Origin: Candidatus Magasanikiibacteriota bacterium | GTDB lineage: Bacteria > Patescibacteriota > Patescibacteriia > Magasanikbacterales > GWA2-37-8 | Assembly: GCA_041666745.1 (NCBI GenBank) | Contig: JBAYGI010000001.1 | Span: 91,095 to 155,094 of the forward strand | Length of the DNA: 64,000 nt | Direction of reading: 5' to 3' | Part shown: one piece after another, positions 59,179 through 64,000 of the stretch | How the letters are laid out: every line of letters begins with the position of its first letter | How positions within the stretch are numbered: position 1 is the stretch's first letter | Position numbers and translations under genes: made by a program | The notes under the pieces: generated by a model | Told to the model about the DNA's origin: nothing | The model's database searches: none | Seen by the model: only the letters and a program-made list of their open reading frames with translations

Positions 59179-62100
59179 ATGCCTAGAAGAGAAACCCATC
59201 GCTCTTTACCTGAAACTTGGAAATTTTTTGATCCAAGTGATTTTCACCCTAATGATGAAATAGTTTTTCATAATCCCGATAATAACAAATGGGAAAAAGG
59301 TAGACTGGCCAATTCACCACCTTCGCCAGGCGTTCCAATTGTTGATCGGGATAGTCGTCGTATTTATATAGAAAACACCAGTGGTACTCCAGTCGGTATA
59401 GAGTTGAGAATTCCGCCCAAAAAAGTGGACAAGGTTGTTTTGAATAAAAAAATAAAAATTTCTATCGAAGACAAACCGGGATCACACACATTGGTAATTT
59501 ATCAGGTTCAACAGGATGCCACCAATCATGAACCAATTTGGAATGTCGGTCCGGACGGAGAAATAGAAGTGACCTTGGTTCCAGTAACACCAGATGCAAA
59601 TCGCAAAGAGATTAGCAATGTAAACATTGATACTTTGAAAAATGTTCAAGAGATTGAACAGGTAGAATCCTTGGCAGATACTCGGATCAATGCTTTGCGT
59701 ACTCAGATTGATACTATCGCCAATATTAGACGTAAAGAATTGCTTAAAAAAGTAACCGATTTAGATGCAGAAATTAAAAAATTAGTTAATCAGGCCGGCC
59801 ATTTTGATGAGATGGGAGATTTGGAAGGAAGTGAAATTGAGCACGTTGCTGTCCAGATTAAAGAATTGCGTCGTAAGGTAGAAAATGATGTACGCGCCAT
59901 TCAATCCGATTTGGTGAAACTACAAACTGAATTAAATGCCCCCGGTTCCGGTGATTTGGCTAGAAAAAAAGTTGGTGGCAGAGTGATTGAAAATATAAAC
60001 AAATTACAATCCAACATGGAAAAAGTGTGGGCGGATTATGACGCTGATCAAGCTGTCGATCACACGCATGCGGCCTGGGCCATCAAAGATGCGGCTTGGG
60101 TAATAGCGAATACTGCTTTTCAAGCTCGTTTGGCTGCACATGCCGCCAATCCCAATTCTAGAGGTAACGCGCCAACCTTTAATCAGATCCGAGAAGTAGA
60201 ACCACCACGTGCGATTGGCTTGACAGAGCCGGATCCAAATCATGTTCCCAAAGACAAATTTCTTAATGCATTCAACCAATTTAATCTTAGTTTTCAAAAC
60301 GCTAATAATGCGGCAGGTCGTGCAGATCCAAATTTACAACCATACAGAGATATGGCGGCTGAGATCGACCGAAGATTGACGGAGCGCAAGAATCAAGATG
60401 GTGTGGTTGGTGCTTATCCGGCCATAGATCCAAATATTGGTAGGCCGGCTGGAGCTCCGCGACTTCCATTTTATTCTTATATAGAAGAAGATAGGGTTCT
60501 GGGTGAAATAGTATTGCAAGTAGCCAAAGAATGGAGTGAAAAAGAAGTTGTTGAAACAGCAAAATTCGATTTTAAAAAAGAACAAGACGAACTGGATGTA
60601 AAAATTAAAGAATTAATAACTAAAGCCGATACGCTTGCTTTGAAAAATACAACTTTGGAAGTGACGGCCGATGCCCTGAGAGCCGATCTGAACACATTAA
60701 ATGGTTACACCAAAACCACACCGGGTGTTGAAAATCTGATGGCGAATATTTGGCGAGATATTGGTAATCGTGAAATTATTTTGTTTCAAGAAGAATCACG
60801 CACCACCGGTCGTAGTGAAAAATTAAAAGAAATAGACGTAGATTTGCCACCGAGTGTGTTGCGAGAGATTTTGGCTGGCAGAGAAAATCAAGTAGCCGAT
60901 GTGATGCGCCAGGCATATACCAACCAAATTGAAGGCGGTGCTGGTATGCAAGCCGGTATTGAGGAAGCGATGAAACGTCTATTTGAACCTTCACCAACTC
61001 AAACTGGTCCGCGTGGTGCTCAAGGAAATTTACAAGCCAACGAGGCGATGATTGCTCGTTTGCGACAATATGGAATAAAAGATTGGCGACATTTTAAAAA
61101 ATTGTGGGATGAAAAGTTAGCTCCAGAGGCAAGTAAATTAATACACAGTTGGGCACAGGATGATATCACAAATGAAATCGCTCGAAATTCCAGTCAGCTG
61201 GAAAAAATCCGAGCCATAGGTGGACAGATGGCGGTGCGTGTATTGCTTAATGTTGCGTTAGTCGGCGGTGGTGTAGTTGGAGCTTCGGCAATTTTTGCCA
61301 GTGGCGGTTTGGCTGGTCTGGCTTTGGTGGCGGCCGGTGGTGCGGTCGGCGGTGGTGTACGCGCCGGTTTACAAAAATTTGTATTTGGTGGTAATAATAT
61401 GGTGGGTAAATGGTTTGCGGATAGACAAACCGCCCAACTGGCTGAACTTGGCCGACGTGAAAGAGAGCGCGCCATCAACAATTTATTAACCAATCGTTTT
61501 GGAAATGATCACGCCAACAATCCGGTTTTTGCCGGAGATAGTTTGCGAATGTTTACTTCGATGTTGGCGCAAGCTGGGCGTGAAGCTTCTGCGGAAAATG
61601 TTGAAACAGATAAATACGCTGATGAACAAAAATTATCCGGTGATTCCAGACGTATATACATGGAAGCAATAAAAGATATTGAAAATGCCGGTGATGTGCC
61701 ATCAGAAAAACAAAAAATGGCTTGCGCGATTGCTATTAAAAAATTGCAGGAGCGAACTGTAGGTTCTATCTCCGAGGCCCTTCCGGACAATCCAATGATC
61801 GTGAGGATTTTGGATGGTGTGATGCAGGGTTATACTGGAAATTTGGCACGAAGTGATAAATATGGTTATGGGGGTGCGGCGGCCACGGTAGTTTTGGGTG
61901 GTGCTTCGGCAATAGCATTTGCCGCTGATCAGACTTGGGCTAGAGCCACTATGGGTGGTATTGGTGGTGCGTTAGTTGGTTATAATGTGGTAGAAGGCAG
62001 ACGAGCGAGAGCCGAAATGCAAACAGCCAGAAATACTGTTGAACATTTACTCAATACAGGCGAACAAGAGTTCGATAGAATTTTAACAGCTAGAGAAAAT

Positions 62101-64000: not shown

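Follow-up and report, generated by a model that had tools for sequence, protein, structure and literature searches.

A giant predicted membrane protein encoded at the end of an apparently lineage-restricted six-gene operon in Candidatus Magasanikbacteria

The plus strand of a 64,000-nucleotide stretch of a Candidatus Magasanikiibacteriota genome (contig JBAYGI010000001.1, positions 91,095 to 155,094; here called the window) ends in a giant reading frame that opens with an ATG at 59179 and runs off the last nucleotide. Our analysis confirmed that this frame is a real gene. Its product, 1,669 amino acids (aa) in full, resembles nothing characterized as far as sequence and fold comparison can tell. 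The gene closes an operon of six genes, of which it is the largest; the operon is inherited vertically, and we found it only in Candidatus Magasanikbacteria. We tentatively read the giant protein as the backbone of an envelope complex peculiar to this lineage, spanning the membrane and with one end exposed at the surface, a reading to which we give a probability of roughly 0.45. It draws on synteny within a single lineage, a tightly packed operon free of enzymes, a glycine-zipper membrane core, a large cytoplasmic part, and a fast-evolving external part.

The original prediction, made from the letters of the window, had claimed more than 1,600 open codons, and translation of frame +1 from 59179 to 64000 indeed gives 1,607 codons with zero stops, while the remaining five frames contain 50 to 156 stops over the same interval. 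Given the base composition of the window, the chance probability of such a long open frame is about 9e-50. Codon usage was modeled on seven long window genes, and under this model the giant frame scored a log-likelihood of +547, compared to -359 to -1299 for the other five, and the coding score was above zero in 16 of 16 successive 300-nucleotide (nt) bins. Codon periodicity was also evident, with GC fractions of 0.57, 0.41, and 0.31 at codon positions 1, 2, and 3. All nine minus-strand open reading frames (ORFs) listed in 60004-63986 turned out to be shadow ORFs of this gene; each is 106 aa or shorter, they mostly start with TTG or GTG, and they lie in frames with negative coding scores. The absence of the giant frame from the ORF track, correctly noticed in the original prediction, has a trivial cause, because ORF listers omit frames that run off the end of a sequence, and is no biological oddity.

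Both ends of the gene could be fixed. The start is backed by homologues, in which M1 is invariant, and the N-terminal motif M-x-x-R-[ED]-T-H-R-S-L-P is kept in the three closest of them. The stop was located by extending the sequence into a public contig of 222 kb (ENA ERZ27249449 k141_1179167, locus L007), which was retrieved through an exact look-up of the neighboring 104-aa protein and is 100% identical to window positions 48647-64000. There, the stop codon falls at the equivalent of 64186-64188, 188 nt beyond the window end, and 10 nt past it begins a strong terminator (equivalent to 64198-64227) consisting of a hairpin with a 13-bp stem and a T-rich tail. A second assembly (Logan contig L008) has a 1,669-aa gene called at the same position, and the protein is deposited in NCBI with the same length as MFA6547463.1, [quoted passage not shown] The stop counts, the codon statistics, and the existence of full-length homologues thus rule out a noncoding or chance ORF, and a frameshift or assembly artifact is ruled out by the intact frame in the independent ENA assembly together with the identical length in L008 and MFA6547463.1.

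Conserved membrane core and predicted topology

Hydropathy analysis revealed three uncharged Gly/Ala-rich stretches at aa 692-727, 895-916 (with a weaker segment to about 940), and 1074-1095, and the spacing of these hydrophobic segments is repeated across the giant family. The peptide quoted earlier as an example of such segments, VGGGVVGASAIFASGGLAGLALVAAGG, lies at aa 695-721. Together with AlphaFold modeling, hydropathy and the family-wide segment pattern support the view that this is a very large integral membrane protein. The first glycine-rich hydrophobic hairpin (aa 673-737, window 61195-61389; all coordinates of the giant gene and its operon are on the plus strand) contains 36 uncharged residues at aa 692-727, a length sufficient for a hairpin, and is the best-conserved segment of the family. 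The second (aa 895-940, 61861-61998) carries a GxxxGxxxG zipper formed by G926, G930, and G934, all nearly invariant, and a conserved R922 in its turn. A fifth membrane segment (aa 1072-1096, 62392-62466) is predicted to take the C terminus out of the cell.

Family identity is 43% in hairpin 1 and 34 to 43% in the membrane modules and the helix preceding them, compared to 15 to 24% in most other regions and 12% in a proline-rich linker. The invariant residues (G632, W636, R687, G696, G725, and G887) are Gly, Trp, or Arg in or beside the membrane segments; G632 and W636 were invariant in 32 relatives. In a 32-sequence alignment, from which charges and motifs were counted, each sequence had on average 6.8, 5.6, and 3.1 (G/A/S)xxx(G/A/S)xxx(G/A/S) motifs in its three hydrophobic modules, whose glycine content was 21 to 27%. 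Repeated small-xxx-small motifs in the membrane helices are a trait that the giant protein shares with glycine-zipper channel formers. No conserved His, Asp, Ser, Cys, or Lys was found in the family alignment, and there are no Walker A, HExxH, or LPXTG motifs in the giant protein; for these reasons it looks structural rather than enzymatic.

The distribution of charges suggests how the chain crosses the membrane. Lys plus Arg averaged 4.0 and 3.5 in the flanks of hairpin 1 and 0.09 in its turn, and around the last segment, they numbered 5.7 in the 20 residues before and 2.0 in the 20 after. By the positive-inside rule, the N-terminal ~670 aa and two loops of about 150 aa would be cytoplasmic, and the last ~570 aa would lie outside. 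We therefore infer that the N terminus is inside and the C terminus outside, the chain making two re-entrant hairpins and one single span, five passes in total. Both loops are predicted to be cytoplasmic and helical (loop 1, aa 738-894, 61390-61860, with the conserved motifs NNLL..RFG..HANNP and GDVP.E.QK; loop 2, aa 941-1071, 61999-62391). Profile-profile comparison of hairpin 1 plus loop 1 with hairpin 2 plus loop 2 gave a probability of 54% and an E value of 1.3e-4 over 152 collinear columns, which hints at an ancient internal duplication. With an uncharged hydrophobic hairpin between helical regions that share one side of the membrane, the giant protein recalls the chlamydial Inc proteins, which have a "bilobed" uncharged hairpin of 36 to 40 residues with helical or coiled-coil flanks on one membrane side. 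The Inc proteins are small, are exported by type III secretion, and become inserted into a host-derived membrane, whereas the giant protein has three hydrophobic modules in a 1,669-aa chain and no sequence similarity to them. The window showed no type III system.

The part upstream from the core had been described as a soluble N-terminal region, a description that our analysis supports; the first hydrophobic segment starts at aa 677. The AlphaFold model of aa 1-1104 (mean predicted local distance difference test [pLDDT] of 68.6 and predicted template modeling score [pTM] of 0.50) shows two β-barrels at aa 27-149 and then helices throughout. The first 149 residues (59179-59625) comprise the conserved N-terminal peptide and the two small β-barrel domains, with strands at aa 27-76 and 92-149 (pLDDT of about 70 to 88), and are predicted to be cytoplasmic. 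Searching the PDB with this model retrieved only weak matches to tandem Tudor and SAWADEE domains (E value of 0.6 or worse). Residues 150-672 (59626-61194) form long helices, partly coiled coil, interrupted by the proline-rich linker at aa 324-359 and ending in a conserved premembrane helix (RLRQYGIKDWRHFKKLWDEKLAP). The original prediction of long coiled-coil stretches was right about the long helices, which AlphaFold places at aa 150-323 and 360-600, but not about the coiled coil as a general feature: in the heptad test, only aa 218-254 and 475-509 exceeded shuffled sequences, which confines coiled coil to parts of the helical region.

Beyond the last membrane segment, residues 1097-1607 (62467-64000, continuing to residue 1669 beyond the window) comprise a disordered Ala/Pro/Thr/Gly linker, an α/β domain, and variable helical or disordered parts. 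This C-terminal part of about 570 aa is probably external, and it diverges about twice as fast as the rest of the protein, with an identity to the closest homologue of 28 to 29% compared to 56% over the first 1,104 aa. The AlphaFold model of aa 1100-1607 had a mean pLDDT of 62.9, with a disordered Ala/Pro/Thr linker, the α/β domain, and more helical parts; the domain itself (aa ~1174-1291, motif DWR...MG...H...PGAK) reached a pLDDT of 85 to 94. In a fold search of the C-terminal model against the PDB, the best E value was 0.48, and Pfam searches with 13 C-terminal regions gave no consistent match and no adhesin or repeat domain. A LysM-like reading of aa 1174-1291 was rejected, as no Pfam LysM match appeared at E values up to 1; no LysM structure was among the best 50 of the 122 Foldseek matches either. 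Low-complexity repeats had also been proposed; the low-complexity sequence HPEVAPAHTEVAP does occur at aa 1161-1173, but there is no repeat array, only two imperfect copies of 6 to 7 residues. Features of sortase-anchored or S-layer adhesins are lacking in the giant protein, which has no N-terminal secretion signal, no LPXTG, and no Pfam adhesin or repeat domain.

The operon and its distribution

Six genes in close succession, with gaps of 3, 29, 20, 4, and 3 nt in the window, make up the operon. The first (56102-56896) encodes a 264-aa polytopic membrane protein, rich in Trp and with about seven to eight hydrophobic segments by hydropathy, which is named hypothetical protein in NCBI (MFA6547458.1). 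It has no match in Pfam, NCBIfam, or the PDB, and orthologues occupy the same position in loci L002, L003, L004, L010, L014, L016, and L018.

The second gene (56900-57967) encodes a protein of 355 aa that is anchored by a single membrane segment near its N terminus (aa 21-50) and combines a protease fold of the HtrA/DegP type with a PDZ-like region at the C terminus. The profile of its orthologues matched the DegP-like structure 7xs0 with an E value of 1.6e-9 over aa 107-346, and the protease-fold region and the following PDZ align with DegP-like structures, although the PDZ_2 match (E value of 0.0046) was under the Pfam cutoff. From this similarity, we take it to be a true HtrA/DegP homologue. 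However, in the 7xs0 alignment, the His of TNNHV, the Asp of DLAV, and the Ser of GNSGG face nonconserved residues or a gap; each of the six orthologues compared has substitutions or deletions at the triad positions. There is no invariant His past the membrane anchor, and the invariant S115 and D151 are off the triad positions. The protein is a membrane-anchored pseudoprotease lacking the His-Asp-Ser triad, and any role would be binding rather than cleavage. The PGAP name of this gene, "S1C family serine protease," overstates its function, as the three catalytic residues are missing in the six orthologues.

Gene 3 (57997-58626) encodes a Wzz/polysaccharide co-polymerase (PCP)-like protein of about 201 to 209 aa with a membrane helix at each end (aa 9-43 and 179-202) and an external domain between them. 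It matched Pfam Wzz with 29.4 bits (cutoff of 25.5) and is named Wzz/FepE/Etk N-terminal domain-containing protein in NCBI; the match to TIGR01006 (CpsC family; E value of 4.5e-4, 19.7 bits) was far under the cutoff of 296. Like short PCP proteins of the CpsC/Wzz co-polymerase systems, it has a Wzz N-terminal domain and a topology of two membrane helices. In contrast to those systems, the operon has no tyrosine kinase, Wzy, Wzx, or glycosyltransferase, and the giant protein has no counterpart in them. Genes for Wzy, Wzx, or a BY-kinase were absent from the operon and its flanks in the window and in the related loci, and the operon has no kinase, polymerase, flippase, glycosyltransferase, or ATPase gene at all.

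Two small soluble proteins precede the giant. Gene 4 (58647-58961) encodes the 104-aa DUF5663 protein (Pfam PF18908, 33.8 bits with a cutoff of 23.7), of whose relatives carrying a name, 81 of 81 belong to Magasanikbacteria or Patescibacteria. Gene 5 (58966-59175) encodes 69 aa, read as helical from sequence, and its stop lies 3 nt before the giant ATG; a gene of 65 to 69 aa fills this position in every locus examined. The DUF5663 gene and the ~69-aa gene were found directly 5′ of the giant in six of six independent loci anchored on the giant gene, as well as in the window's own contig (L007/L008), with giant homologues in this synteny set down to 18 to 24% identity. Wherever the upstream flank suffices, the order is smpB (on the opposite strand), ~260-aa polytopic protein, ~355-aa protein, Wzz-like protein of ~200 aa, DUF5663 protein of ~105 aa, ~69-aa protein, and giant. 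Two loci anchored on (and hence selected for) DUF5663 show the full operon order too.

Three loci (L010/L011/L012, L016/L017, and L018) are interrupted by selfish or homing-type genes, without the operon set being broken up. These insertions lie between the 355-aa or Wzz-like gene and DUF5663 (L010 6323-6700, L016 9427-9798, and L018 7619-9761) and include 23S_rRNA_IVP, DUF559, KilA-N, and GIY-YIG genes as well as a PhdYeFM-type antitoxin gene with a small neighbor, possibly a toxin-antitoxin pair. No cis-regulatory RNA was found near the operon with Rfam. A tmRNA gene (tag peptide ANLFSKAKIALANAFGGSYCNFAPVAA) adjoins smpB, divergent from the operon (window 55149-55551 and 55554-56036, both on the minus strand).

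To survey the family, a word-index search of 5.8 billion clusters was performed, which returned three relatives of 1,646 to 1,657 aa, alignable from residue 1 and 40 to 48% identical over the aligned parts; repeating it with a 28-sequence profile gave the same three proteins only. A HMMER profile of the first 1,104 residues, run against 1.84 billion representatives, found 84 relatives with an E value of ≤1e-3 (72 of them at ≤1e-10), nearly all between 1,400 and 2,100 aa long. The GTDB species representatives yielded one giant-protein locus, and JGI metagenomes yielded two. All giant-family members with an organism name are Magasanikbacteria, and the candidate phyla radiation (CPR) source guessed from the letters holds, as L20, LigA, and SecA of the window are deposited as proteins of Candidatus Magasanikbacteria metagenome-assembled genomes (MAGs). 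One contig with the same operon (L004, CAZHTA010000019.1) belongs, in the GTDB representative set, to a MAG that bears the title "uncultured Gammaproteobacteria bacterium." It is probably misbinned, since all other named members are Magasanikbacteria.

Reference collections gave little. Pfam had no match in the giant protein or in 28 family members, and NCBIfam had none for the giant protein. PHROGs gave no hit for the window protein and, for the 28 members, just three unnamed single-member hits (E values of >0.001), and no relative was found among the 2.9 million viral contigs of IMG/VR. Sequence profile searches of the PDB found only generic coiled-coil matches (8qox_B and the PcsB coiled coil in 4cgk, E value of ~1e-5), judged nonspecific because the alignments show heptad-like Leu/charge patterns. 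A defense system was considered and rejected: PADLOC gave only a subthreshold Avs2 match (E value of 0.005) without a qualifying domain, which we regard as noise. We found no work on the giant family or on DUF5663 in the literature, so that the family, its topology, and its operon appear to be undescribed, although the sequence itself is public.

Possible roles of the giant protein

Abundant and mostly uncultured, CPR bacteria are thought to rely on other cells, and their envelope and contact structures are largely obscure. In the envelope complex that we favor, the giant and its five partners (the polytopic protein, the inactive HtrA-PDZ protein, the Wzz-like protein, and the two small soluble proteins) would build one assembly. 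Subunits would be packed together through the glycine-zipper helices, and the small soluble partners would dock onto the cytoplasmic helices and barrels. The external part, which evolves fast, would be exposed on the cell surface and could there touch the cell wall, another cell, or a host. The operon partners are all membrane anchored or small, and the only one with an enzyme fold lacks its triad. Host attachment, one of the two functions originally proposed, is compatible with this complex and would fit the variable, probably external C terminus; the other, pore formation, would fit the conserved glycine-zipper membrane core. A bolder reading, which we consider unlikely, is that the operon encodes a new trans-envelope machine specific to Magasanikbacteria, in which an oligomer of the giant protein, joined through its glycine-zipper helices, would act as a conduit or anchoring stalk reaching from the cytoplasm to the cell surface and the inactive HtrA-PDZ and Wzz-like proteins as an external collar, for physical coupling to or exchange with a partner cell.

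Several observations weigh against the envelope complex. Complex formation is deduced from operon structure alone, and the sequence of gene 5 is poorly conserved. The topology is derived from hydropathy and charge counts, and AlphaFold confidence is lowest (pLDDT of <50) exactly at the membrane segments. The restriction to one lineage is based on the few members that bear organism names. In addition, a conserved glycine-zipper core is equally expected of a channel, and conservation beside housekeeping genes would also suit a role in cell division or cell shape.

In the case of a channel, five glycine-zipper helices of several subunits would line a pore in the cell's own membrane, as a conduit for import or export, or, once delivered, in that of a host; gating or docking would fall to the cytoplasmic and external parts. 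Channel-forming proteins commonly contain glycine zippers, and CPR bacteria rely on metabolites taken up from outside. In this family, the glycine-rich membrane segments and the preceding helix are the best-conserved parts, GxxxGxxxG-type motifs are frequent (3 to 7 per segment), and the invariant residues are Gly, plus Arg at the membrane interfaces. However, glycine zippers serve plain helix packing too, no sequence or fold similarity to a known channel, toxin, or secretion component was detected, the operon lacks an ATPase or other energy source, and there is neither a secretion signal nor a nearby secretion system for delivery to a host membrane. We consider this explanation improbable. 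Somewhat less probable still is a division or shape scaffold, by analogy a membrane-anchored cytoskeletal organizer that might replace conventional morphogenetic proteins in a reduced lineage. EzrA and MapZ are membrane-anchored organizers in Firmicutes, MapZ with an external domain, and the giant protein recalls them in its large cytoplasmic helical region tied to the membrane. A pattern typical of vertically inherited core genes, with the same place beside smpB and IF3/L35/L20 in every locus, would agree with this, as would PCP-like and HtrA-like partners resembling envelope biogenesis proteins. Yet no homology to EzrA, MapZ, or any other division or elongation protein was detected, the giant crosses the membrane five times instead of once and is three to five times their size, its fast-diverging external domain would be unusual for docking onto conserved wall synthesis enzymes, and the operon contains no division or wall synthesis genes.

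The remaining explanation, a mobile-element relic such as a captured tape measure-like phage protein or conjugation protein, is close to refuted. The overall look is similar, as tape measure proteins are also very long and mainly α-helical, with central glycine-rich hydrophobic segments and a variable C-terminal part, and the best match of the model (mean pLDDT of 68.6) among the viral structures of BFVD was a tape measure protein, although with an E value of 0.068, a probability of 0.20, and a TM-score of 0.09. An integrative element also lies 6 kb upstream, but it ends at 52953, well before the operon. The absence of PHROGs matches and viral relatives noted above, a chromosomal operon beside smpB instead of a tail module and without phage or conjugation genes, and identical chromosomal synteny across highly diverged genomes all speak against a mobile origin.

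What was an anonymous hypothetical protein is now a mapped, lineage-wide family with a predicted topology, a conserved membrane core, and five fixed partners. If the envelope complex were a surface anchor or a conduit, it would bear on attachment and material exchange by reduced cells. If the giant were merely a structural envelope protein, the result would be modest, as CPR genomes are well known to encode large orphan membrane or envelope proteins, and our analysis does not show any new mechanism.

Upstream neighborhood

The giant gene had originally been linked to a type IV pilus (T4P) cluster lying upstream, a link that the gene order does not bear out. The T4P genes identified, in a scan that covered the window beyond its first stretch (1-19 kb), encode PilM (33454-34587), a pilin (35082-35504), and a prepilin peptidase (35587-36393). 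They are 23 kb upstream, separated by unrelated genes and a mobile element: LigA, a radical-SAM protein, MazF, PPDK, tRNA-Asp, the element of about 8 kb, L20/L35/IF3, tmRNA, and SmpB lie between them and the operon. In a relative with a 744-kb contig, PPDK, a rhodanese gene, and an unannotated 160-aa gene are followed by L20/L35/IF3, SmpB, and the operon, without the ~8-kb element; a 118-aa 23S_rRNA_IVP gene stands beside SmpB there. Based on the gene order in the window and in this relative, we place the pilus genes outside the neighborhood of the giant gene. No pilus genes occur in the conserved neighborhood of the relatives, where SmpB and the five operon partners are the constant neighbors, and no T4P component signature (pilin methylation motif or PilB/C/M/N/O/Q homology) was found in the giant protein, which has no Pfam or NCBIfam match whatsoever.

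The mobile element (window 44844-52953) is bounded by a 102-nt direct repeat, the copies of which are 88% identical and 8,008 nt apart, the first starting at the 3′ end of tRNA-Asp (44773-44847). Between them are a serine recombinase, a Rep ORF2/G2P-like gene, two DNA methyltransferases, an ICEA-like gene, an Mrr-like endonuclease, and an ORF of 195 aa, so that the whole looks like an integrative element of about 8 kb with a restriction-modification system. It is missing at the syntenic place in L016. A 35-nt motif with the core CAGTTCTGATAACGTCAA occurs in three copies (52130-52164, 52815-52849, and 53658-53692), each at or just past the end of a plus-strand ORF. Further upstream, the minus strand encodes an 853-aa protein (27661-30222) named [quoted passage not shown] in NCBI.

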